Part shown: piece after piece, positions 1 to 40,451 of the stretch
Position numbering within the stretch: the first letter of the stretch is position 1
How the letters are laid out: every line of letters begins with the position of its first letter
Notes under the pieces: model-generated
What the model was told of the DNA's origin: nothing
Database searches by the model: none
The model's input: the letters and a program-made list of their open reading frames with translations, nothing else
Assembly (NCBI GenBank): GCA_043797985.1
Contig: JAZDPB010000174.1
Location: 1-60,327, forward strand
Source: Chloroflexota bacterium
GTDB taxonomy: Bacteria; Chloroflexota; Dehalococcoidia; Dehalococcoidales; UBA2162
Length of the DNA: 60,327 nucleotides
Reading direction: 5' to 3'
Made by a program: the position numbers and the translations under genes

Positions 1-825
<825 letters not shown>

Positions 826-1041: not shown

Positions 1042-1335
1042 TTAACCATTCCAGAATGTTGCTCTAAAGTAGTCATTTACCCTGCGAATTAATACCGCGT
1101 CTTCCATCTTATCTCCGGCATACCAGGGACGTTTGCCCCTTTTCCGTTTAGCATGAGTAGTGTCAACAGCATCCTCATGGTTTTCTAACCACTCGCGTGC
1201 CGCCTCAGCAACAATATCACTCACTGCCATATGCCTTTTCGCTGCCTCAGCTTCTAGATGGAAATAGAGTTTTTCATCATGGAACACCACCGTCATTCCC
1301 TCAGGCATCGGATAATCCCCCTTTGACATATGCAA
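1042..1335 (-). CDS. hypothetical small protein, possibly ribbon-helix-helix (CopG-like)
   Basis: 97-aa ORF in the track. The segment MTVVFHDEKLYFHLEAEAAKRHMAVSDIVAEAAREWL has a beta-strand plus two-helix pattern typical of RHH proteins. The AGGGGG spacing favours the internal ATG at 1308 as the start. No partner toxin gene is seen. Confidence 0.4.
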   Translation of the reverse strand: MHMSKGDYPMPEGMTVVFHDEKLYFHLEAEAAKRHMAVSDIVAEAAREWLENHEDAVDTTHAKRKRGKRPWYAGDKMEDAVLIRRVNDYFRATFWNG

Positions 1336-1411
1336 TTACGCACGTATAAATACTATTATAAATACTATATAGGATACCTCTTCTGGCTGATAGATGGTGT
1401 TAACTCAGATA

Positions 1412-1485
1412 CGCGCCTAGAGGGATTCGAACCCACGACCCCCGGTTCCGAAGACCGATGCTCTTGTCCGCTGAGCTATAGGCGC
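1412..1485 (-). tRNA. tRNA-Arg (anticodon TCG)
   Basis: The reverse complement folds as a cloverleaf: acceptor GCGCCTA/TAGGCGC, D arm GCTC..GAGC, anticodon stem TCGGT/ACCGG with loop CTTCGGA, T loop TTCGAAT. There is one U-U mismatch in the T stem. CCA is not encoded. Confidence 0.88.
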
Positions 1486-1666
1486 ATGAAGTTAAATTAA
1501 GGGTTACTCATTTTACATAATTTCAAATTGCTACTAAATGATTCTACTGGTTTATTATACTTTGATATAAAGGCTTCGTCAAAGCGGTTGGCAGAGAAAA
1601 AAGTATTTACTAGAAACGTTCATTGATGTATTATTAAAATAATGGCATTCTTAAAGAATAGCCTGA

Positions 1667-2281
1667 ATGGAGGATAATGTGGTTAGCGAAATCAAGAATA
1701 AAAGAATAATGACAGCACCTCTTCCTACGATCCTTGATGATATTGAAGGTAGTATTAAGTTGTCCGATGAAGCAGCGAAAAACGCTAGAGAAGCTGCTGA
1801 GGAAGCCCGCCGGGCTGGTGAAAAGGCGGCGGCTGAGGCAGCTAGAGTTGCTGCCGCGGCAATTGATAAACTAAGGGAAGAGATTACTAGAAGTCTTGAA
1901 AAATTGGGCCAGGATGTTACGCGGGCTACGGCTGAGGTAGCTAGAGCTAATTCCGAGGCAATTGCCAAACTGAGCGAGGAGATTGGCAATGCTTTTGAGA
2001 AGGTTAGCCAGGATATCGCGCAGGTTAAGTTGGAAGAGAAGGAAGCACGCGAGGCTGGTGAAAAGGTAGCCGCCGAGGCAATTGACAAACTGAGCGAAGA
2101 GACTGCTAATACCTTCAAGAAGGTAACTGAAGATATTACAGAGCTTGGTAGAAGCATGATTGAAGGTGACGCTAGAGTTGAGCAGATAGCCAGGGATGGT
2201 GTAGCGTTGGCCCGATTGCTGAACTTAGCGGTTATGAATGCAGCTGCTGGTATAGAGAAAACACTTACAAAAGGGCCATAG
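1667..2281 (+). CDS. hypothetical Ala/Glu/Lys-rich coiled-coil protein with internal repeats
   Basis: 204-aa ORF. Near-identical 30-nt segments (gaggcaattgccaaactgagcgaggagatt at about 1956 and gaggcaattgacaaactgagcgaagagact at about 2076) give repeated AIxKLSEE modules. No family recognised; start codon uncertain. Confidence 0.5.
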   Translation: MEDNVVSEIKNKRIMTAPLPTILDDIEGSIKLSDEAAKNAREAAEEARRAGEKAAAEAARVAAAAIDKLREEITRSLEKLGQDVTRATAEVARANSEAIAKLSEEIGNAFEKVSQDIAQVKLEEKEAREAGEKVAAEAIDKLSEETANTFKKVTEDITELGRSMIEGDARVEQIARDGVALARLLNLAVMNAAAGIEKTLTKGP

Positions 2282-2558
2282 CTTACCGGCAGTGCTAAAC
2301 TTAGCTTTCCCCGAAAGAAATTAAGCGGAAGCCAGATTCTTGCGAGAGAACCTTAATTGTAGATACGAAAATACCTCTAACGGTTATGAAAGTAACGGCG
2401 AGGGATATTTTATCTACCTAATAGTGGGCTCTTCTTACGACACTGAGAGTATCGGCATAGAGATAATTTTGTCAGTGTGGTCACAATAACTTGCGTTTAC
2501 CTTGGTTCTGGCGTTTCTGATAAATATCTTTAGAGGCGCATCTTTTAGTTCTTCATTT

Positions 2559-2717
2559 GGTTCTGTTTGTATTTGGTTGATTCCGATGTTATCAGTAGAA
2601 ACCAAACAACTTTCTCAAAGATGTCATTCCAGCGCAGGCTGGAATCCAATGACGGGAAGAGGTAGACCTGGATTCTGGCTCCCGTATCAGGTACGGGACA
2701 AGTTTCGCCAGAATGGC
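2559..2717. repeat. interspersed repeat copy (GGTTCTGTTTGYATYTGGTTGATTCC module plus nested hairpins)
   Basis: 2559-2586 matches the reverse complement of about 11218-11245. It is followed by hairpins GTCATT-CCAGC..GCTGG-..AATGAC and ATTCTGGC-CCCGTA..TACGGG-..GCCAGAAT. The track ORF 2502..2738 is a translation of this repeat. Confidence 0.75.
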
Positions 2718-2804
2718 AACACCACCAAAACCGAATAGTACCCTTCGTGAATCGGATTAATCGTCACTGTCAGGAGTTGTCAAATTTTAATGCCTATTGA
2801 TTAA

Positions 2805-2845
2805 TCCGAAGACCGATGCTCTTGTCTGCTGAGTTATAGGCGCAT
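2805..2845 (-). pseudogene. truncated copy of the tRNA-Arg 5' half (positions 1 to end of anticodon loop)
   Basis: 39/41 identity to 1447-1487. Identity stops exactly at the 3' side of the anticodon loop (CTTCGGA). Both mismatches fall in the D arm. No 3' half follows. Confidence 0.85.
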
Positions 2846-2855
2846 TAAATTTCTT

Positions 2856-2933
2856 TGGGGTGAGTGGAGGGATTTGAACCCTCGATATCCAGGGCCACAA
2901 CCTGGCGCCTTAGTCCACTGGGCCACACTCACC
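2856..2933 (-). tRNA. tRNA-His (anticodon GTG)
   Basis: The reverse complement is GGTGAGTGTGGCCCAGTGGACTAAGGCGCCAGGTTGTGGCCCTGGATATCGAGGGTTCAAATCCCTCCACTCACCCCA. It has an encoded G-1 opposite C73, anticodon loop TTGTGGC, T loop TTCAAAT, and encoded CCA. Confidence 0.9.
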
Positions 2934-3062
2934 ATCAATTGGTGCCTTGGACTGTGGCAACGAATATTATAACGAAAGATATCCTTCGTTTCAATAAGCT
3001 TATACTAGTTCGTATGATAGTAACACGATTATCAATCAGTCTTTTAAGTCTGTTCGATATCC

Positions 3063-3240
3063 TTACCTCACCCCCTTAATCCCCCTCTCCTGAAAGGCGA
3101 GGGGGAAAATAGATAAAAAAGAAGGGGGCTCTAAGCCCCCTTCTTTTAAAATTACTTCCCCTTTCCCTGCCAGGGAAAGGGGATAGGGTCGACTATCTAG
3201 TCGGAAGACCATCGAGTGTCACCAATCTATCTTAGCTAGT
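3063..3240. repeat. array of GC-rich hairpin modules plus a 55-nt unit shared with 21418-21475
   Basis: Hairpins at 3081-3105 (CCCCCTCTCC..GGCGAGGGGG), 3121-3143 (GAAGGGGGCT..AGCCCCCTTC, flanked by A6 and T4) and 3157-3183 (TCCCCTTTCCCTG/CAGGGAAAGGGGA). 3183-3238 is the reverse complement of the unit at 21418-21475. Confidence 0.8.
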
Positions 3241-3367
3241 TCATAAGCTAATTATGTTTCCGGTGGGAGTCTGCATCTTGACAAGTAGCGAATGTAGCTA
3301 TATTCTCAAATTAGTAGAGGGGCTATCCTTTCACTCTTTACTTTGTTCTAAAAGGAGAATAATCAAA

Positions 3368-5152
3368 ATGAAATATATTAGGATGTTCCGCACTGTAGCT
3401 GTAGCGCTGGTCCTGGCTCTTTTAGTTGCTACCGCACCAGCGATGCCAGCGCTGGCTGAATCTGAAGTCTATGTTTCTCCGTCTAGCGGCCCGGTGGGAA
3501 CAGTGATAACAATTGCTGGCTCAGGCTTTACACGCAATGCGTCGGTTAGCATTTACTTCCCAGATAAAAATACACACAAACTATATGCCGAGACTGATAT
3601 CACGGGTTATTTCAGCGGCGCTAACTTTTCTATTGCTGCTTACCCTGTGGGAAGTCAAACGGTATATGTACGGGATATGTACTCGGGTAATTGGTCTTTG
3701 GCTACTTTCACGATAACTTCCAAGATTAGCCTTGACCGGTTGTCCGGTTATGTGGGTGATATTGTAAAAGTCAGCGGTAATGGTTTTGCCGATAGCGTAG
3801 GCGCGACCATCTATTTCGATGAGGTACGGATTGGAACCACCACGACGACTGGTGCTGGTACTCTTACTACTTCTACTGCCACTTTTACCGTTCCCGTCAC
3901 CTACCAGGGCAATCACACGATAAAAGTTATTGATGCTTCGGGCAATAGTGACACTACAGAATTCGTTGTCAACCCGTCGAGCAACATATCTCCAACTTCG
4001 GGGATAGTGGGCAGCATAGTATCTGTTAATGGTACCGCATTTACGGCAAATCACCTTATAGCTATTACTTTTGATGGTAAAGCGGTTACCACCACTCAGG
4101 CATCGGTCACGACTGATAGTAAGGGTAGCTTCCAGGTCGGTTTCAATGTGCCTGTCGGGGCCAATGGCGTCCACCGAGTGACAATTAGCGATGGCACCAA
4201 TGAGACTAGGAACAATTTCACTATTTTGGCTTCAGCAGACATCAAACCCATCTCTGGCTATGTTGGTAGTAAGATTATGGCTAGTGGCACTGGCTTTCTT
4301 GCCAATAAATTAGTGACTATCAACTTTGATAACGAGAAGGTCGCTACCGCATCTACTGATAGTCTTGGCAGCTTTGCCGCTACTTTTAGCGTACCGGTAG
4401 CCAATGCTGGCAAATACAAAGTAATGGCCAGCGATGGTACCAATATAGTTGAGGCCGAGTTTTCGATTACGACCACTGCCAGCATTATTCCGGTTACCAG
4501 TGTGGCTTCGCCCGGTTATGTCGGCACTGACATAACCGTCAATGGTGTTGGATTTATGGCTGGTAAAACAGCAACTGTTACCTACAGCGATAATCAAGTA
4601 GCGACACCTACTGTTAGCGCTGATGGAAGCTTCGCGGTCTCTTTTAAAGCTCCACCCAGCGCAGGCGGAGAACACCAGATAATTGCTACCGATGGCATAA
4701 GCACCAGGGAGTTTACTTTCATTATGGAATCAACTCCACCAGCGATACCAAGACCAGTGAAACCAGAAATGGATATCAAGGCTAAGTCAGAAACCTACTT
4801 TGACTGGGAGGATGTTACTGACCCGAGTGGTGTAACCTATGTCTTTCAGGTTGCCGATGATAAGGGCTTTTTGGGGGGCTCCATATTGCTTGAGAAAACG
4901 GGGCTTATTGCTTCAGAATATACCCTTACCAAGGAAGAAGAGCTAAAGCCGACAAGTAAAGAAGCGCCCTACTACTGGCATGTTAAGGTGTTAGATGGTG
5001 CTTCTAATAGCAGTGAATGGTCAGGTACCGGGTCATTCTATGTTGGTGGGTTCCTTCAGACCCAGGTGTTAATATATGTCCTGCTTGGAATCGGTGCCTT
5101 GCTCCTCGGCGTTTTAGGTTTCTGGATAGGCAAGAGAACCAGCCGTTCTTAA
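3368..5152 (+). CDS. cell-surface protein with tandem Ig-like (IPT/TIG-type) repeats and a C-terminal membrane anchor
   Basis: The ORF is 3254..5152, but MKYIRMFRTVAVALVLALLVATAPAMPALA at 3368 looks like a signal peptide with AAGGAG upstream. There are about five to six ~85-aa repeats of pattern SPxSGxVGSxIxVxGxGFxAN..ITFDG...TDSxGSF...VP. The C-terminal helix is VLIYVLLGIGALLLGVLGFWIGKR. Confidence 0.75.
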   Translation: MKYIRMFRTVAVALVLALLVATAPAMPALAESEVYVSPSSGPVGTVITIAGSGFTRNASVSIYFPDKNTHKLYAETDITGYFSGANFSIAAYPVGSQTVYVRDMYSGNWSLATFTITSKISLDRLSGYVGDIVKVSGNGFADSVGATIYFDEVRIGTTTTTGAGTLTTSTATFTVPVTYQGNHTIKVIDASGNSDTTEFVVNPSSNISPTSGIVGSIVSVNGTAFTANHLIAITFDGKAVTTTQASVTTDSKGSFQVGFNVPVGANGVHRVTISDGTNETRNNFTILASADIKPISGYVGSKIMASGTGFLANKLVTINFDNEKVATASTDSLGSFAATFSVPVANAGKYKVMASDGTNIVEAEFSITTTASIIPVTSVASPGYVGTDITVNGVGFMAGKTATVTYSDNQVATPTVSADGSFAVSFKAPPSAGGEHQIIATDGISTREFTFIMESTPPAIPRPVKPEMDIKAKSETYFDWEDVTDPSGVTYVFQVADDKGFLGGSILLEKTGLIASEYTLTKEEELKPTSKEAPYYWHVKVLDGASNSSEWSGTGSFYVGGFLQTQVLIYVLLGIGALLLGVLGFWIGKRTSRS

Positions 5153-5233
5153 CCATTAGCTATCTTATCTATGGCTCTATCTTTGGGAATTCGGTGTCAT
5201 AGACCGAAAAGAGGACATCACCGCCGAAACAGG

Positions 5234-5530
5234 CTATTGTTGTTCTCTGACCCGGCGTAACTCCATTGTTACTAAGTTTGTGTGGTCCATACACTCTACA
5301 GTCATCACATCTGGGTTTCCCCATGCAGCGGGAAACCCGCCGCCGAACTGAAGCATAGCAATGTAGGGGTAGATATCGTGATAGAAGAAGCCACATAGGT
5401 TAGCGGTGTCATGGCAGCTTATTTCAAAAGTGTCACCGGCCTCATGTCCCCATGAGCAATTGCCCTTAACCGATTTTACTGTCGCTACTACTTTGTTGTC
5501 GGGAGAGGTTGCCCTTCTTGGCTTTGTCAT
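5234..5530 (-). CDS. small Cys-rich protein, TIGR04076-like
   Basis: 98 aa with CSWGHEAGDTF...C...LCGFFYHDIYPYIAMLQFGGGFPW-type pattern that I associate with the TIGR04076 family. It lies directly downstream of the AOR gene. Confidence 0.55.
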   Translation of the reverse strand: MTKPRRATSPDNKVVATVKSVKGNCSWGHEAGDTFEISCHDTANLCGFFYHDIYPYIAMLQFGGGFPAAWGNPDVMTVECMDHTNLVTMELRRVREQQ

Positions 5531-5548
5531 AGCCTTGTCCTCCGTATA

Positions 5549-7408
5549 TCAATATTCAATGCCTAGCTCTTCTACTTTTTCTGGAGTAGGTACGCCAGTT
5601 TTTGCATCCCAGCCCATTAAAGTATAATAGTATCTTTTCGCTGCTTCCAGTTGTTTACTATCGTAATGCTTCGTAGAGAGGACGCCGTTCCTCTTCGGTT
5701 GGAAGAAACGATTTGGTAGCTTGTCGTCGGCAGCAGTAAATCCTTCCCGAATGTTGAATAACCTTGCCATGGTTAAAGTCCTCTCTGCCACCTTCAACAT
5801 TTCGACCGCGCTAGTATTCCACCCGGTAACAGCAGCTAAGATATTGGTAACCTGTTCAGCGTCATAAGGTGTAAACAAACAGAGACCGAGGTCGTCTTGA
5901 GCAATACGAAACAGGTGACTTGCTCGAAACAGGGCTACCTTCTTTGGCCCAAGTTCGTCAGCAGAGAGAGGTTCAAGTATCCCGAGAAGTTTTACGGTCT
6001 CTAATCCCCGTCCTGGTGTGGAGAACATAGTATCATGGAGGTTGGCACAGTGGTCAGCTCCATGAGGGTTAACTTCGTAGCCCAGACCTAGAGCTGCTTT
6101 GACTCGCGGGTCGTGCATTGCTATTTCCAGCCCCTTAACATGCATGGCAAATTCCTGCGCTTTGTTGCCAATTCTTTTAACTGCGCGAGCCGTTCCCTCA
6201 GCCAGCAGGTCGCCAATACCTTCACGTTTGGCAATCAGTTCAATCATTTTGAGCATTGCTTCGGCATTGCCGAATTTGAGTTCGATGCCATTGGTGTCTT
6301 CCATATTTAGCAGGCCGTTCTCAAAACACTCCATGGCAAAACCAATGACAACCCCTGTTGAAATACTATCCAGGGAATAGGCGTTACAAAGTTCATTTCC
6401 TTTGGCGATTGCCTTGAGGTCGCCTATGCCACAGTTAGAGCCTATCGCTGCTAATGTCTCATACTCCGGGCCACCATAGTCGGGGTCTACGGAGTAAGGT
6501 TCATCAACCCTCACCACTTTTTTACAGCGGATTGAGCAAGCATAACAGGCTTCCATCCTCACCCTTATCGTGTCTCTTACTGCCTCAGCACTTATTTTTG
6601 ATACCTCAGGAAATTCACCATCCAGGAAATTACGGACCGGTACATTTCCGGTAGACATAAAAGCTCCCATTCCGGCTCCGGTGCCCAGTTCGTTGAATGA
6701 AGCCCATAGCGGTCGGTTGGCTAATAGCCACTGTCTGAATCCCTTCAGACGCTCAGGGTCAGCTACCTTCGGTCGTTTATGACCCCTGACACCAATAGCT
6801 TTGAGGTTCTTTGAACCCATTACTGCCCCCATTCCTCCTCTACCAGCAGCATCCTTCAGGTCATTCATTACGCAGGCGAAACGCACCAGATTTTCTCCGG
6901 CTGGACCGATGGCGGCTACTCTGATGAGGTTGTCTTCTTGCTCAGTTCTGATGGCTTGCTCGGTCTCCTTGGTCGTTTTTCCCCACAGATGACTGGCATC
7001 CTTTATGTACACTTCCCCGTCGTGAATCCAGAGGTAGACCGGTTTTTTAGCCTTGCCCTCAACGATAATGGTATCGTAGCCGGCGTGCTTGAGCTCGGCG
7101 CCCCAGTATCCGCCGGACTCTGCCTTACCGTAGCCGCCGGTTAGAGGTGATTTAGCACCAACGCAGTGACGGCCACTTCCCGGCAGGGGAACGCCTGTTA
7201 CCGGTCCTAGGGCAAAGATTAGTTTGTTCTCCGGGCTTAAGGGGTCAATCCCTTGCCGTAGTTCTTTAAGCAGAAAGTATGAAATAAAACCAGCACCGCC
7301 CAGGTACTTCCGGCAGAATAATTCGTCAGTTGTCTCGACAGAGGTGCTGTTTTTAGAAAGATTCACTCTTAAGATTTTGCCATTGTAACCGCCTACCTTT
7401 TCGGCCAT
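5549..7408 (-). CDS. aor: aldehyde:ferredoxin oxidoreductase (tungstopterin family)
   Basis: 619 aa. The N-terminal AOR_N-like region (GKILRVNLS...), the Cys cluster EACYACSIRCKK and the overall length match the AOR family. GAGGAGG lies before the ATG. Confidence 0.88.
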   Translation of the reverse strand: MAEKVGGYNGKILRVNLSKNSTSVETTDELFCRKYLGGAGFISYFLLKELRQGIDPLSPENKLIFALGPVTGVPLPGSGRHCVGAKSPLTGGYGKAESGGYWGAELKHAGYDTIIVEGKAKKPVYLWIHDGEVYIKDASHLWGKTTKETEQAIRTEQEDNLIRVAAIGPAGENLVRFACVMNDLKDAAGRGGMGAVMGSKNLKAIGVRGHKRPKVADPERLKGFRQWLLANRPLWASFNELGTGAGMGAFMSTGNVPVRNFLDGEFPEVSKISAEAVRDTIRVRMEACYACSIRCKKVVRVDEPYSVDPDYGGPEYETLAAIGSNCGIGDLKAIAKGNELCNAYSLDSISTGVVIGFAMECFENGLLNMEDTNGIELKFGNAEAMLKMIELIAKREGIGDLLAEGTARAVKRIGNKAQEFAMHVKGLEIAMHDPRVKAALGLGYEVNPHGADHCANLHDTMFSTPGRGLETVKLLGILEPLSADELGPKKVALFRASHLFRIAQDDLGLCLFTPYDAEQVTNILAAVTGWNTSAVEMLKVAERTLTMARLFNIREGFTAADDKLPNRFFQPKRNGVLSTKHYDSKQLEAAKRYYYTLMGWDAKTGVPTPEKVEELGIEY

Positions 7409-33052: not shown

Positions 33053-33129
33053 GGCGCATTCGTCTAGGGGTTTAGGACACCTCCCTCTCAAGGAGGAGAT
33101 CACCGGTTCGAATCCGGTATGCGCTACCA
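33053..33129 (+). tRNA. tRNA-Glu (anticodon CTC)
   Basis: GGCGCAT acceptor (G1-U72), anticodon stem CCTCC/GGAGG with loop CTCTCAA, T arm ACCGG-TTCGAAT-CCGGT, CCA encoded. Confidence 0.88.
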
Positions 33130-34881: not shown

Positions 34882-35388
34882 ATGTATTATTCTTTTAATG
34901 AAATTAGTTTTCAATTACAGGCATATATGAAACTTACAGAGAATAAGATAGCAGGAATTCTCAGGAAGCACGGAAATAAGCTGACCCCCCAACGGCACCT
35001 GATACTGAAAGTTATTGCCTCGAGCCATGACCACCTAACCCCGGAAGTTATATATGAGAAGTCGCGGTTAGCAGACCCTGGCATCGGACGGGTTACTGTT
35101 TACCGTACTCTTGAGCTACTGAGCAAACTTGACCTGGTGTGCAAAGTCCATACCGAGAATGGATGCCGCAGTTACATGATGAGAAGACCTACGGAACATC
35201 ACCATCATCTGGTTTGCTCCGGGTGTGGTAGGGTGGTAGATTTCACCAATTGTAGTCTGGTCGAGACGGAGAAAAAATTGTCTCAGGAAAGTGGATTCGA
35301 CATCAAAGGGCATCTGCTTGAATTCTACGGACTCTGTCATAATTGTGTCACCAACAGCTCGGATTCGTTTCGTTCTGGATTGTTATGA
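34882..35388 (+). CDS. Fur-family metalloregulator (Zur/Fur-like)
   Basis: 168-aa ORF (likely start 34927, MKLTENK...). Winged helix (LTPQRHLILKVI), HHHHLVCSGCG and CHNC metal sites. It precedes a metal ABC importer. Confidence 0.85.
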   Translation: MYYSFNEISFQLQAYMKLTENKIAGILRKHGNKLTPQRHLILKVIASSHDHLTPEVIYEKSRLADPGIGRVTVYRTLELLSKLDLVCKVHTENGCRSYMMRRPTEHHHHLVCSGCGRVVDFTNCSLVETEKKLSQESGFDIKGHLLEFYGLCHNCVTNSSDSFRSGLL

Positions 35389-35429
35389 CGAAGACGTATA
35401 TGCAATCCGTCCAGGTTGAGGAGAGGTAA

Positions 35430-36323
35430 ATGAAGGGAAAATACATAATACTTGCTGTGCTTGGTTTTTCCCTTATTCTGAGTGCATTATCCTGCCAGCC
35501 TGTAGCTACCGGGTCAAAGAAATCCATTGTCGTTACTTATTCCGTTCTCGGTTCTGTGGTGAGGGAATTGGTCGGGGATAAGGCAACCGTTATTGTCCCG
35601 ATGCCCAATGGACTTGACCCCCATGAATGGGAGCCATCGGCGAAGGATATTGAAGCGATAAACAAAGCAGACCTCGTCATCGAAAACGGGCTTGGGCTTG
35701 AAGGTGGCATGGAGAAGGCACTTGAGGCAGCAAAAAGCAAGGGAGTCAGGTTCTTTACGGCTTCAGATTATATTACGGTGCGACATGTGGGAACTGATGA
35801 GGGAATTCCCTCTGGTACCCTCGACCCACACCTGTGGCCCGACCCGCTTACTATGAAGAGTATCGTCAGTGCCCTTGTTCCAGCTCTGCTCAAAGAGCTA
35901 AATCTGGATGTTACTACGCAAGCGAGCGATTTGGAAAACCGGCTGGATAGCTTGAATATGGAGGTTGCCAATATTGTGGCAACCATACCTCAGCCAGACC
36001 GCAAGCTGGTCACCGGCCACGAGTCGCTGGGGTATTTTGCCCAGCGCTATGGCTTTAAGGTAGTTGGTGTCATTATTCCCAGCCTGTCTTCGCAGGCAGA
36101 GGTATCTGCGGCGGACCTGGCAGCCCTCAAGAAAGCAATCCTGGATAACCAGGTCAAGGTGATATTTACTGAGCTTGGCACATCGCCGGCGGTGGCTAAA
36201 ACTATCGGTGATGAGACCGGGGTTAAGGTAATTGAACTCAACACTCATACCCTACCCGGTGATGGCTCGTATTTTACATTTATGCGTGACCTCGCTGGTG
36301 CTATTACTAATGCATTGAAATAG
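35430..36323 (+). CDS. metal (Zn/Mn-type) ABC transporter substrate-binding lipoprotein, cluster A-I
   Basis: 297 aa. Signal peptide with LSALSC lipobox-like Cys, and metal ligand motifs DPHEWEPS and DPHLW. There is no His-rich loop, so metal specificity stays open. Confidence 0.82.
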   Translation: MKGKYIILAVLGFSLILSALSCQPVATGSKKSIVVTYSVLGSVVRELVGDKATVIVPMPNGLDPHEWEPSAKDIEAINKADLVIENGLGLEGGMEKALEAAKSKGVRFFTASDYITVRHVGTDEGIPSGTLDPHLWPDPLTMKSIVSALVPALLKELNLDVTTQASDLENRLDSLNMEVANIVATIPQPDRKLVTGHESLGYFAQRYGFKVVGVIIPSLSSQAEVSAADLAALKKAILDNQVKVIFTELGTSPAVAKTIGDETGVKVIELNTHTLPGDGSYFTFMRDLAGAITNALK

Positions 36324-36330
36324 GGGAATT

Positions 36331-37182
36331 ATGGACGTACTGGTAACTCCATTCTCAACCAACAGCTTCATGCTTCAAGCTCTGATTGCTGGTATTCTTG
36401 TCTCGATTGCTTGTGCCATTGCCGGTACCTTTATCATTCTACGTGGATTAGCTTTCATCGGCGATGCACTTGCTCATGGCGTATTGCCCGGCATTGCGGT
36501 AGCAATTCTCGTAGGTTTCCCGGGAATAATCGGGGCGGCAATCGGCGCTGCCTTCATGATTGGGGGCATCACCCTGATTACACGACGGTCAAGATTATCT
36601 TCTGATACTGCCATAGGATTGCTCTTCGTTGGGATGTTGTCTCTCGGTGTGGTTATCGTGTCGCGCTCCAGTTCTTTCAGCGGTGACCTCATCCGAATAT
36701 TGTTTGGTGAGATTCTGGGTATTAGCATCCAGTCCATATTGATTCAACTCGTAGCCACGATAGCGATTATTGCGATAGCGATTGTTTGTGCTCGTCCATT
36801 CCTGCTGCTGAGTTTTGACCCTGAGCAGGCAGAAGTCGCCGGTTTCCCCGTCCGTCTCTATCATAATGTCATGCTTTTTATGATTGCGATTACAGTTATT
36901 GTATCCTTTCAGACGGTGGGCACTTTGCTGGTCTTTGGTTTGCTTATCGCACCGGCCGGTGCTGGCGCACTCCTTGCCCGGCGCATTCAGGTAATGATGG
37001 CATGGGCAGTACTCTTCGGAGCGCTGTCAATGTATGGCGGTTTATTGATTAGTTATCACTTTGACTTGGCGGCGGGAGCAGCTATAATATTAGTAGCTAT
37101 AGTCATCTTTTTTGTCGTATTCATTTTGCAGAATTTACGGTATCGTCGAGTTACTCCTCTGCAGGAGATAAAACATGGATAG
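36331..37182 (+). CDS. metal ABC transporter permease (ABC-3 family)
   Basis: 283 aa, 8-9 TM segments, typical ZnuB/MntB-like sequence (GDALAHGVLPGIA). Confidence 0.85.
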   Translation: MDVLVTPFSTNSFMLQALIAGILVSIACAIAGTFIILRGLAFIGDALAHGVLPGIAVAILVGFPGIIGAAIGAAFMIGGITLITRRSRLSSDTAIGLLFVGMLSLGVVIVSRSSSFSGDLIRILFGEILGISIQSILIQLVATIAIIAIAIVCARPFLLLSFDPEQAEVAGFPVRLYHNVMLFMIAITVIVSFQTVGTLLVFGLLIAPAGAGALLARRIQVMMAWAVLFGALSMYGGLLISYHFDLAAGAAIILVAIVIFFVVFILQNLRYRRVTPLQEIKHG

Positions 37183-38035
37183 CCAAAAGAATGCCTTGTC
37201 AACGGGAAGTACCAATACCCTTGAATTGACCTCTAACGGTACTCCTTTTGTTGCCGCAGAAAATCTCAATATTGGTTATTCTAACGAAGTCATTGTCGAA
37301 GGTATTAATTTTGAGTTGGGTTCCGGAGAGGCGTTCGCTCTCATCGGTACGAATGGTTCTGGAAAGTCCACTCTCCTCAAGACAATTGTGGGGCTGCTTC
37401 CAACTATGGGGGGTCGGTTATCAGTATTTGGGACACCTCCAGGCAAGAATCACGAAAGAATAGCCTACCTTGGCCAGTTTCACCGCACAGGGTTTGTCTT
37501 GCCGCTTCGCACAATCGATGTCGTGCGCATGGGCCGGTTTCCACAATACGGCTTGTGGAAACGAATGGGCCGACAGGATGAAGAAATTGTCCTATCTGCT
37601 ATGAGAATGATGGGTATCGAAAAGCTAGCAAATGTTCCGCTACGCTCGTTATCGGGTGGGCAACAGCAGCGAACCTACCTTGCTCAGGTGCTGGCTCATC
37701 AGGCAAGCTTGCTTGTGCTTGACGAGCCAACTGCGGGGCTGGATGCTGGCGGACGTGAACTCTACTTGCACGCCCTCAATGATGAGCTGTACCGGGGAGC
37801 CTCGGTAATAATTGCCACTCATGACATTCATGAAGAAGCGGCTCTTTGCCGGCAGGTGATGCTCCTGGCTCGTAAGGTGGTCGCTCTCGGTGCACCACAG
37901 CAGGTCATCACGCCCGAGGCTTTGCTGGAGACCTTCGGCATTGTCGTCACCGGCGAGAAACACGTTCAAGTGCTTGAGTGTCAGCATAAAGATGAAGGCA
38001 GTCTGGAACTTGGACTTAATGTCCCGGGACGCTAG
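37175..38035 (+). CDS. metal ABC transporter ATP-binding protein
   Basis: 286 aa. Walker A GTNGSGKST, signature LSGGQQQR, Walker B LLVLDEPT. It overlaps the permease gene by 8 nt. Confidence 0.88.
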   Translation: MDSQKNALSTGSTNTLELTSNGTPFVAAENLNIGYSNEVIVEGINFELGSGEAFALIGTNGSGKSTLLKTIVGLLPTMGGRLSVFGTPPGKNHERIAYLGQFHRTGFVLPLRTIDVVRMGRFPQYGLWKRMGRQDEEIVLSAMRMMGIEKLANVPLRSLSGGQQQRTYLAQVLAHQASLLVLDEPTAGLDAGGRELYLHALNDELYRGASVIIATHDIHEEAALCRQVMLLARKVVALGAPQQVITPEALLETFGIVVTGEKHVQVLECQHKDEGSLELGLNVPGR

Positions 38036-38056
38036 AGACCTTGTTGGGGAGATACG

Positions 38057-38779
38057 ATGCGTATTCTGGTGCTATGCCAGGGGCATTACGGTGAGAGAAT
38101 AATCGAGCACATTAAGAAATCTGGACCAAAAGACTGGGTGCTTGAGGTTATCACTACGCCACGTGTTTTGCCTATGGTTATAGATGAGCCGGAAGAGTTT
38201 ATACCCTCCAATATACCTCAGGCTAATCTATTACTGGCAATGAGTGAATCGCCTGAGACGGCGCAGCTTGTGCCGGCGATAGCCAGGCTCTCAAAGGTTG
38301 AAGCGGTAATTATGCCGGTTGATAACTCGGCATGGCTGCCTCCCGGTCTGAAGAACCAGTTGCAGAGTGATATTGTTAAAACCGGCGTATCCGTTGTCTT
38401 TCCCAAGACCTTTTGTACACTCACCGAAGAGACTGCTAGCTATGGTGGCGATATCGAAAGATATGATAGCCGGTGTATCGCGCATTTTGCCAGATACTTT
38501 GGTAAGCCGAAGCTGAAGATTAAGGTTGATGCTCAGAGTGGCAGAATAGCAGATGTCAAGGTAGAGCGGAGTGCTCCCTGTGGTTCTACCCATTACGTTG
38601 CCGAAAAGTTAGCGGGTGTACCCATAAACGAAGCAATACCACAAGCAGGTTTGCACGCTCATCATTATCCCTGTCTTGCCTCAATGCAGATGGAGCCGAA
38701 TGGCGAAACGCTTATGCATATCTCGGGATATGTGGTGAATGACGAGGTCAAGCGAGAACTGGAGAACAGGTTGGCATGA
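38057..38779 (+). CDS. DUF166-family protein
   Basis: 240 aa. The overall pattern (MRILVLCQGHYGERI..., APCGSTHY, HAHHYPCLASM) matches what I recall of the archaeal/Dehalococcoidia DUF166 family. Last intact gene of the metal-uptake operon. Confidence 0.6.
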   Translation: MRILVLCQGHYGERIIEHIKKSGPKDWVLEVITTPRVLPMVIDEPEEFIPSNIPQANLLLAMSESPETAQLVPAIARLSKVEAVIMPVDNSAWLPPGLKNQLQSDIVKTGVSVVFPKTFCTLTEETASYGGDIERYDSRCIAHFARYFGKPKLKIKVDAQSGRIADVKVERSAPCGSTHYVAEKLAGVPINEAIPQAGLHAHHYPCLASMQMEPNGETLMHISGYVVNDEVKRELENRLA

Positions 38780-39413
38780 TTAAGTACTATCCGTATGGAG
38801 AGCGCCGAAATAGTCAGGGTACTTTAGGCACGGATAAGCTCTTTACCGGGCAGAGATTGGATGATACCGGGCTTTATTACTACGGCGCCAGATATTACGA
38901 CCCAACGATTGGGAGATTTATCAGTCCGGATACGATTGTACCACAATCTGCTAATCCGCAAGCGTTAAATCGGTATTCTTATGTTCTTAATAATCCACTT
39001 AGGTACACAGACCCAACTGGTTATGATGTGAACTGGTGGGTGGTCGGAGGTGGGGTAACTTTGTTAGTAGCAGGAGGGATACTGTGCTGGTACCTGGCAC
39101 CTGTTGCTTTTTTGCCGTTGCTGCTGAAGTGGCTGCTCTTAATGCGGCTGCTGCTACTGGAGTGGGATTTGGGGCTGCTTTGCTCTCGACCATAGAAGCC
39201 ACAGTTGTTAGCATTCCATTGGTTGTTGGGAGTGCTGCATTACCTATTGCCATAGGTTTCGGACTTGTGGTACATGGGGCAGTGGGCTCAAACGCACCAA
39301 AGACAACTTCACAGGAAACACCATCGAATCCCGATCCTGAACCGACAGACCCTGAGCCTCCGTTCGTGCCTGTCCCTTCTAATGAGTATGACTATGTTAA
39401 TTATTTCGACTAG
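38776..39413 (+). CDS. 5'-truncated RHS repeat-associated core tip with Gly/Ala-rich hydrophobic C-terminal domain; frameshifted at a T6 run
   Basis: ORF 38776..39195 reads YYPYGE...FTGQRLDDTGLYYYGARYYDPTIGRFISPDT...NRYSYVLNNPLRYTDPTGY, the RHS core end with a DPxGx cleavage motif. ORF 39036..39413 (-1 frame) continues the hydrophobic domain. One extra or missing T in TTTTTT (39108-39113) fuses them into about 212 aa. The ATG overlaps the DUF166 stop (ATGA). Confidence 0.7.
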
Positions 39414-39472: not shown

Positions 39473-40294
39473 ATGTGGACACCAACAAAACGCTATGCAA
39501 GGAACGGAACTATCGTTGTGACAATAGCAGTTTTACTCATAGTATTAGTCATAGGTGTGATATCACATGTGTCACTACGAGACCTACTAATAATGGCTCT
39601 AATGGTTATTGTAATTGATATCCTTATTGGGACTCTAGCAAGTTGGCTATTCCTGAGGATAATCTATCCTAAATTAGGATTTGTTGTTGAGAAGCCAATA
39701 ATAAGTAAAGCGTTCCGAGCAGACTTACTAAAGGAAGAAAAAATAGAATACGAGGTAAAAAGAGATGATGTGTTGGCCTTTCATCTCTTCAATTATGAAC
39801 ATTCGCCTATTTTAGGACGAGCAAGAAGACTCATGCGATTTATGCTACTACCCAGTATTATACTTATGCTTTTGAGTTCCATTGTAAGTGTCGCCATTTT
39901 CGGCAGGAATTATATATCTTTTGCTGTAGGTGTAGGTTTCTTTACAGTACTAATACTTATCTACTATATTTTTTCCCCTCCCCTGATTCGAAAGGGATTC
40001 ACCAAGATAGTAGAAAGAGACTATGGTCGGGGAAAGGACAAGCTCACTAGAAAGCACAAGCTTTCAATTTCTTCTGAAACTGTGACTGATATAACTGATA
40101 TGGGGGAGTCAACAACCCACTGGGATACTATAGAATGGATAGCATCTACAGACCAGCATCTATTCATGGCGGTGCGTGGCTCAGGGCCTCATATTGTGCC
40201 AAGGAGAGCGTTTACTAATGAAGAAGCGTTCAAGCAATTTGTTGATACAGTCAACACATATTATCAAGTGACGGAAGCTAGCAATCTTGGCTAA
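39473..40294 (+). CDS. YcxB-like membrane protein (candidate immunity protein)
   Basis: 273 aa. Two pairs of TM helices and a C-terminal segment HWDTIEWIASTDQHLFMAVRGSGPHIVPRRAFTNEEAFKQF resembling the YcxB-like domain. The region looks AT-richer than its neighbours by eye. Confidence 0.5.
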   Translation: MWTPTKRYARNGTIVVTIAVLLIVLVIGVISHVSLRDLLIMALMVIVIDILIGTLASWLFLRIIYPKLGFVVEKPIISKAFRADLLKEEKIEYEVKRDDVLAFHLFNYEHSPILGRARRLMRFMLLPSIILMLLSSIVSVAIFGRNYISFAVGVGFFTVLILIYYIFSPPLIRKGFTKIVERDYGRGKDKLTRKHKLSISSETVTDITDMGESTTHWDTIEWIASTDQHLFMAVRGSGPHIVPRRAFTNEEAFKQFVDTVNTYYQVTEASNLG

Positions 40295-40330: not shown

Positions 40331-40451
40331 GGAGGGCATTCATGCTTAAACCCAGATCACCCCAAACCTCATTCTTTATGAGTGGGACTTTTTCGACAGT
40401 CTAGTACGGGATAGCTACAAGAAGAGAGTAAAGTTGCGCGAAACAGCAGGC

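Follow-up and report, generated by a model that had tools for sequence, protein, structure and literature searches.

The window analysed here, the 60,327-nt contig JAZDPB010000174.1 of the Chloroflexota metagenome-assembled genome (MAG) GCA_043797985.1, carries on its forward strand the tip of an rhs gene (38776-39195) followed by a gene for a YcxB-family membrane protein (39473-40294). We regard this locus as, quite likely, a stranded orphan rhs toxin/immunity module, in which a decaying tip of a membrane-acting toxin is accompanied by an intact membrane immunity gene. Direct observation established the anatomy of the locus and its homologies, the frameshift within the tip, the lack of an RHS shell, the conservation of the gene pair and its foreign base composition. 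An earlier note, made from the sequence of the window alone, had offered two readings, a stranded orphan toxin cassette or a stand-alone membrane peptide. The first of these is supported by the genuine RHS core, the lack of a shell, the occurrence of relatives of the C-terminal domain (CT) in orphan arrays, the conserved downstream partner and the broken frame.

The tip open reading frame (ORF) encodes 139 amino acids (aa), which comprise the RHS core, the first hydrophobic helix of the CT and a 28-aa out-of-frame Leu-rich tail. Its product is identical to protein P0001, listed by NCBI as 'RHS repeat-associated core domain-containing protein' from a Chloroflexota bacterium. The RHS repeat-associated core tip occupies aa 1-83 (38776-39024). 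Within it, aa 4-82 matched the NCBIfam model TIGR03696 (Rhs_assc_core) with an E value of 1.2e-23 and 83.3 bits, the curated cut-off being 32.5 bits, and a Pfam search of the tip protein gave no match. The description of the ORF as starting inside the RHS core was therefore right as to the core itself and slightly imprecise as to its extent: the match spans positions 1-75 of the 76 in the model, so that the tip domain TIGR03696 is complete and the missing part is the sequence upstream of the domain. The search with hidden Markov models that had been proposed for the frame-repaired 212-aa tip matched the TIGR03696 core and left the CT unmatched.

In YenC2, TccC3, Tse5 and other solved RHS proteins, the ~80 residues that lead up to the cleavage site align with residues 3-82 of the tip, with E values of 3e-11 to 1e-8 for the plugs of YenC2 and TccC3 (PDB chains). 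R39, D52 and D79 match the YenC2 residues in GFRYY, SADP and TDPDG, respectively, and R39, D52 and D79-P-T-G-Y83 are present in the tip and invariant across the RHS tip alignment A2. The Arg and both Asp residues of the aspartyl autoprotease found in the C-terminal plug of TcC/YenC2 and of type VI secretion system (T6SS) Rhs proteins are conserved in the tip. However, unlike these proteins, the window has only the tip of the plug and no cocoon, and its first 'DPxG' motif is degenerate (SPDTIV), as it is in all Chloroflexota relatives examined. In RhsA, the aspartate dyad D1324/D1346 is required for C-terminal autocleavage, and the cut falls four residues past the second Asp, at W1350 (PMC8765631). 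Since D52 and D79 correspond to this dyad, autocleavage of the tip would be expected after Y83, by analogy with RhsA. An insertion of ~37 aa (…ILDGLQYVSFQLCINYLPF…) was found within the core, between the catalytic aspartates, in proteins P0019, P0040, P0007 and P0132 (alignment A1, columns ~114-150); it is missing from the window tip and from most other tips.

The missing YD-repeat shell had already been remarked on from the sequence, and none was found in the 60-kb contig: when 120 RHS homologues were compared with it, together with six RHS reading frames of related loci (five of these 2045-2400 aa long), all matches fell within 38758-39111. No main rhs gene lies within 38 kb upstream or 21 kb downstream of the tip. 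Type VI secretion genes were not noticed in the window; no dedicated search for them was made.

The coding region of the CT is interrupted by a one-base frameshift in a run of six T (T6, 39108-39113), where the window is one T short relative to the frame of its homologues. Adding one T at this point gives a 212-aa protein reading ...WYLAPVAFFAVAAEV..., and this repair is taken to be correct because three homologues, P0019, P0040 and the tip of locus L081, align without interruption across the site. In the unrepaired sequence, the CT continues in the -1 frame (39114-39413), where the ORF list and the shuffles showed 99 codons free of stops before the stop codon, a length equalled by 1.1% of the shuffles. 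The second frame as a whole (39036-39413, 125 aa) carries on the hydrophobic domain. Because the shifted frame is still open over 99 codons, either the lesion arose recently, or it is tolerated, or it is an error. Elsewhere, the contig contains long intact ORFs and, of the 18 T6 runs in all, the other 17 look intact, so an error-prone assembly is unlikely; a frameshift confined to the tip gene in an otherwise intact contig supports the reading of the locus as a decaying module.

If the frameshift were nevertheless an assembly or consensus error, the tip would be an intact stand-alone protein of 212 aa, coupled to the upstream DUF166 gene, controlled by metal limitation and self-cleaving, and it would release a 129-aa membrane peptide in the producer. 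Such a protein, counteracted by the YcxB protein, could serve for example in addiction, lysis or kin discrimination. The open post-shift frame would fit this explanation, as would the catalytic R/D/D residues and the ATGA overlap at the start of the ORF, with a GGAG 12 nt upstream of the ATG. Moreover, three isolated tips found in other genomes (L001, L002 and L106) are intact, bear start codons and follow co-directional housekeeping genes. However, the frame is interrupted in a contig whose other long ORFs and T6 runs look intact, and the closest relative, the L081 tip, has no start codon until GTG 2783, in the middle of the core. Other isolated tips follow divergent genes, so coupling to an operon is not a rule. 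The protease site of solved RHS proteins belongs to a plug that many repeats build inside the cocoon (PMC8765631), and the AlphaFold model of the repaired 212-aa tip alone reached no confident fold (predicted local distance difference test (pLDDT) 47, predicted template modelling score 0.19), with one long helix at 87-143. No support was obtained for a shell-less 82-aa tip folding or cleaving. The stand-alone peptide proposed in the earlier note is thus not upheld, and we consider both this reading and the roles attached to it improbable.

The T run could also be a deliberate switch, operating either by programmed -1 frameshifting on the slippery heptamer T TTT TTG (39108-39114, zero frame) or by slipped-strand phase variation. 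The heptamer stands exactly at the shift, a -1 slip on it would give the full 212-aa product, and the downstream frame has been kept open. However, no stable RNA structure was detected in the 100 nt downstream of the heptamer (z = +0.52; 135 of 200 shuffles fold as well), and the sole hairpin, located upstream of the run, lacks significance, so programmed frameshifting is unsupported. The relatives are single continuous ORFs, as read from the DNA for L081/P0131 and from the called proteins for P0019 and P0040, and six T's are short for efficient phase variation. Programmed -1 frameshifting was rejected, as the downstream structure is missing and the two-frame layout is absent from the relatives, and a switch of either kind has next to no probability. 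The upstream hairpin itself (39084-39113), with a 7-bp stem (GTGCCAG...) followed by CTGTTGCTTTTTT, is part of the coding sequence of the CT, and its end coincides exactly with the T run of the frameshift. It looks like an intrinsic terminator, yet it folds no better than the shuffles (z = -0.70).

After repair, the variable C-terminal domain, which occupies the toxin position, comprises 129 aa (39025-39413), in line with the ~125 aa that had been estimated to follow the DPxGx motif. The earlier description of hydrophobic Gly/Ala-rich helices and an acidic Pro-rich tail also held: the Kyte-Doolittle analysis placed three hydrophobic segments at aa 85-103, 104-122 and 132-154 of the repaired tip, and the first 96 CT residues (A 21%, V 17%, G 14%) are followed by a Pro/acidic tail ending NEYDYVNYFD. 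No family match was obtained for the CT in Pfam, NCBIfam, PADLOC or PDB, which agrees with its having been recognised as no described toxin family. Weak matches to TrbL, LAVTG and mycosin were dismissed as compositional. An exhaustive phmmer search of 1.84 billion representative proteins returned a single relative, P0040 (E 1.2e-5), and a profile search added P0019, P0131 and P0132. The CT family consists of five members, each short or partial, and, judged by its sequence, the CT is a very rare, undescribed domain. The closest relative is the L081 tip (2663-3403 of that locus, equal to P0131), which shows 49% identity over aa 15-196 of the repaired tip and lies within an orphan array.

Four of the related proteins, P0019, P0040, P0132 and P0007, carry at the C-terminus one or two repeats of ~30 aa (TFSDGSxGYFTPEQ or a Cys-containing variant) that are absent from the window copy. 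A hydrophobic segment is present in 49 of 122 Chloroflexota RHS CTs, and in about 16 of the 122 (manual count) a hydrophobic Gly/Ala helix falls within the first 30 CT residues; it is fairly usual for RHS tips of Chloroflexota to have such helices straight behind the cleavage site. Tyr/Asp-rich tails were observed at the ends of unrelated Chloroflexota RHS CTs when the window (NEYDYVNYFD, 39372-39410) was compared with P0088, P0051 and L109, where SSYDYYYD and YYGDYYSNYDDY...CYF are found, and P0051 has a similar Tyr/Asp-rich stretch, YEDDYYYE, just past the cleavage site. These tails may be a shared packaging or recognition element or a mere compositional habit.

The gene that follows the tip (39473-40294, forward strand) has its own AAGGAAG ribosome-binding site and encodes a 273-aa protein of the YcxB family, the candidate immunity protein. 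It matches Pfam PF14317 with an E value of 1.3e-6 and 28.4 bits, above the gathering score of 23.3. The Kyte-Doolittle analysis detected three hydrophobic stretches. The AlphaFold model (pLDDT 76) is helical through the hydrophobic regions and ends in a C-terminal beta-sandwich of six to seven strands with a terminal helix, for which Foldseek returned PH, PTB and talin-F3 folds. The protein is accordingly predicted, from this model, to have four transmembrane helices and a C-terminal PH/PTB-like domain. It resembles YcxB-like proteins (PF14317) both in passing the Pfam threshold and in its modelled arrangement of helices and a PH-like beta-sandwich with a C-terminal helix. Only ten homologues were found in a database of 5.8 billion clusters.

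The pairing of the two genes recurs elsewhere. In L081 and L082, a YcxB homologue with 46% identity stands directly after the tip with the closest CT relative, inside the orphan array, and in L109 the closest YcxB homologue (53% identity) lies two genes past an RHS gene whose CT is different and whose length is at least 695 aa. A YcxB gene is linked to RHS in three of six independent contexts, and the specific pair of CT and YcxB recurs once; the linkage of YcxB to RHS tips is new, if thin. The base composition also sets the two genes of the window apart: the tip has a G + C content at third codon positions (GC3) of 0.394 and the YcxB gene one of 0.343, while the 43 other ORFs have a mean of 0.494 (sd 0.042) and a minimum of 0.401. 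Because both values fall below this minimum, the tip and the YcxB gene probably arrived together.

These data bear on a further alternative, in which the hydrophobic CT would be a membrane anchor or translocation segment, the functional unit would be the 'TFSDGSxGYFTPEQ' repeat that has been lost in the window, and the YcxB protein would be an unrelated accessory. This explanation draws on the one or two copies of the ~30-aa repeat carried by the four related proteins, on the Chloroflexota RHS CTs that open with a hydrophobic Gly/Ala helix ahead of other domains and on the YcxB homologues that occur without RHS neighbours. It is opposed by the recurrence of the tip-YcxB pairing at an independent locus with a homologous CT, by the third linkage of RHS and YcxB in L109 and by the outlying GC3 shared by the tip and the YcxB gene. 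Another point against it is that L081 has the same partner gene as the window although nothing beyond the hydrophobic region and the linker is common to the two. We hold an anchor to be unlikely, though less so than the stand-alone protein.

Several features of the loci with YcxB homologues were recorded. In L081, an orphan array (1120-5830; L082 is near-identical), all tips begin at the same point of the core (G-T/S-V-P-T-D-K-K-F-T-G-Q), and the TTG start of the next tip overlaps the YcxB TGA (4406-4409), a 4-nt overlap as at the DUF166/tip junction of the window. L082 also carries a CDI_toxin_EC869_like gene. In the RHS protein of L109 (2-2617, at least 695 aa), the CT is rich in Gly and apparently in beta structure, and the next gene encodes a 145-aa multi-pass membrane protein; the two are a candidate for a further membrane-type toxin/immunity pair, upstream of the closest YcxB homologue.

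The module is fused to the 3' end of a DUF166 gene (38057-38779, forward strand; PF02593, E 1e-50), the last gene of the host operon. The tip ATG at 38776 overlaps the TGA of this gene, reading GCATGATT, as had been reported from the sequence. An in-frame stop lies at 38740, 12 codons upstream of the tip ATG, and no promoter-like site was found on the forward strand between 38104 and 39517. Upstream, genes for a Fur-family regulator, ZnuA, an ABC-3 permease and an ABC ATPase (34882-38035, forward strand) were identified by family matches, which confirms the junction to a metal-uptake operon; the gene spacings there are -8 to 41 nt, and the operon is the probable source of read-through transcription into the module. 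Between the YcxB gene and a convergent 660-aa ORF, a hairpin with a T-rich tail (40368-40386, forward strand) resembles a terminator by consensus match only and is the probable right end of the transcription unit. The convergent ORF is tentatively labelled NadE.

The left junction of the module was placed at 38762-38770, between the end of DUF166 conservation and the start of RHS DNA homology. The sequence conserved in DUF166 stops near 38761, and the DNA homology to the three closest tips starts at 38767-38770; for this reason the last four or five DUF166 codons and the stop are considered to be derived from the junction or from RHS. The RHS consensus VG(T/S)IKYYPYG reads VGMIKYYPYG in the window, and the ATG was therefore created at this site. 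DUF166 relatives with 72-75% identity, which at 239-241 aa have the same length as the window's protein, end a forward-strand run that is followed by convergent genes, with no tip. The tblastn search with ZnuABC/Fur of the window (35430-38779) gave no match in the fetched flanks of the DUF166 relatives L085-L088, so the linkage between DUF166 and metal uptake is not conserved. As the neighbours of the DUF166 relatives are not znu genes, this synteny allowed only the left junction to be mapped. The NCBIfam model for the DUF166 (seleno)protein DfsP gave a sub-threshold match to the DUF166 protein of the window (78.7 bits, cut-off 200).

The frequency of such isolated tips was assessed by scanning one genome per species with the 85-aa core, which yielded 75 loci, mostly from Chloroflexota. 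For 58 tips, 8 kb or more of the sequence upstream was available; 13 of these belonged to full-length rhs genes, 26 stood behind another core in orphan arrays and 19 were isolated, 18 of the latter without shell homology beyond ~1 kb upstream. In loci such as L066, L071 and L035, where the frame stays open for 1000-2100 aa before the core, a full-length gene precedes an array of tips; in L026, eleven core matches form an array, and the stretch that was fetched contains no full-length gene. The isolated tips mentioned above lie just after a cupin gene (L001), overlapping ribH (L002) and after lon (L106). The idea that isolated tips are always attached to the 3' ends of co-directional operons was rejected, since several follow divergent genes. 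The window tip is an extreme but ordinary member of this isolated population. A literature search on orphan Rhs in Chloroflexi found nothing. The 18 isolated tips without a shell (L001, L002, L106 and 15 further loci) are each followed by small uncharacterised genes and lie far from any full-length rhs gene, and several isolated Chloroflexota tips occupy convergent gene junctions after housekeeping genes (cupin, ribH, lon).

The concept of orphan rhs-CT/rhsI modules, including their reactivation by recombination with the main rhs gene, comes from Salmonella (PMC3967940). The window shares with the orphans of Enterobacteriaceae, such as STM0292 of Salmonella Typhimurium (PMC3967940), a partial core with a variable CT and a linked downstream gene, as well as the lack of a shell and of an export region, and the same architecture occurs in the related Chloroflexota arrays. 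Unlike them, the window tip follows no main rhs gene in the 60-kb contig, its core homology is ~250 nt in contrast to 522 bp in Salmonella, it is frameshifted and its host is a Chloroflexota MAG. Enterobacterial orphans have no initiation signals, whereas the ATG of the window tip overlaps the upstream stop.

The closest functional analogue of the window pair may be Tse5/Tsi5 of Pseudomonas aeruginosa. The 149-aa CT of Tse5 has transmembrane and amphipathic helices, inserts spontaneously into membranes and forms ion-selective pores that cause depolarisation, and it is neutralised by Tsi5, an integral-membrane protein (PMC9637101, PMC10684867). In both systems a small CT (149 aa in Tse5, 129 aa in the window) follows directly after the Rhs aspartyl-protease site, shows no enzymatic signature, has predicted transmembrane or amphipathic helices and is accompanied by an integral-membrane partner. 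In contrast to the window tip, Tse5 is a full-length PAAR-like T6SS effector, and Tsi5 has two transmembrane regions, whereas the YcxB protein of the window has four predicted transmembrane helices and a PH-like domain. The window CT showed no sequence similarity to Tse5 or to any PDB chain, in which Tse5-CT is possibly not fully represented, and the Tse5 shell chain matched the core of the tip only. A pore-forming or depolarising activity of the CT, already suggested in the earlier note, would be in keeping with this analogy.

On these grounds, the history of the stranded module may be outlined as follows. A segment comprising the last ~83 codons of an rhs gene, the toxin CT and the following immunity gene would have been inserted at the 3' end of DUF166, at the convergent gene junction that closes the Fur/ZnuABC operon. 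Hydrophobic Gly/Ala-rich helices, packed into a small bundle, would make up the toxin domain. If a full-length RHS cocoon delivered this domain, its most likely effect would be to enter the membrane of the target cell and collapse the potential there, in the manner of Tse5. The conserved pairing suggests that the polytopic YcxB protein is the cognate immunity protein and would act within the membrane. In the window, the toxin part appears disabled, as there is neither a shell nor an export region and the deletion in the T run would truncate the domain after the first helix; the locus is probably inactive as a toxin. The YcxB gene is intact, has its own ribosome-binding site and could be transcribed by read-through from the metal operon. 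Toxicity, the membrane target, the immunity role and expression are inferences. As the toxin part is disabled while the immunity gene is intact and open to read-through, the present selected function is probably protection against neighbours that deploy this toxin, with the tip as a decaying passenger. Reactivation by recombination seems unlikely because only ~250 nt of core homology is left and no main rhs gene is in reach, and a role in immunity alone is therefore the simpler account.

Several observations weigh against a stranded toxin/immunity module. Given the open post-shift frame, the lesion at the T6 site may be a sequencing or consensus error or a very recent mutation. The exhaustive and profile searches revealed no full-length RHS protein bearing the CT of the window. 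In three CT relatives from one metagenome, the next genes encode 82-91 aa and are not YcxB, and the YcxB homologues of L078, L080 and L107 have no RHS gene nearby. The C-terminal PH-like domain is strongly conserved in the YcxB subfamily, whereas immunity proteins are usually fast-evolving, and, judged by titles, a literature search on YcxB and immunity found no paper on YcxB in toxin immunity. Finally, the tip ATG is coupled to the upstream stop codon, unlike in textbook orphans. In L078, the YcxB-subfamily homologue (3448-4263, 50% identity) was located between topA and an xerC/D-like recombinase gene, in the order dprA-topA-YcxB-xer, among genes that are otherwise of the housekeeping kind. 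This homologue could be an immunity gene left orphaned, or it could point to a different role for the family.

The tip could also be pictured as a small gene that still works, in which a switch or slippage at the T tract restores the frame, expression is coupled to the Zur/Fur operon, the self-cleaving core releases a glycine-zipper peptide and the YcxB protein acts as its antagonist. We assign this combination a very small probability. If it were true, the start-codon-bearing isolated tips at the 3' ends of Chloroflexota operons would represent a new class of shell-less, RHS-derived, toxin/antitoxin-like genes. Returning to the stranded module as the preferred reading, three results go beyond the earlier note: isolated tips are common in Chloroflexota, the immunity partner is likely to be the YcxB protein, and DUF166 owes its final codons and its stop to the inserted RHS DNA.

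Apart from the module, the contig begins with the 5' half of a 16S rRNA gene (1-825, reverse strand; Rfam SSU_rRNA_bacteria, model positions 1-841), which is truncated by the contig end and could be used for the taxonomic placement of the MAG. Genes for tRNA-Arg(TCG) (1411-1486, reverse strand), tRNA-His(GTG) (2856-2932, reverse strand) and tRNA-Glu(CTC) (33053-33129, forward strand) were also found.

The locus leaves the current concepts of polymorphic toxins unchanged. If the reading as a stranded module is true, the RHS toxin domains of the membrane type gain an undescribed and very rare one, of which five members are known, and the locus would provide the first contextual clue to the function of this YcxB (PF14317) subfamily, namely immunity to a membrane-acting toxin. 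About a third of the surveyed Chloroflexota rhs tips (18 of 58) are stranded far from any rhs gene. This stranding does not fit the enterobacterial picture of orphans stacked behind the main gene and raises the question of how such modules move.

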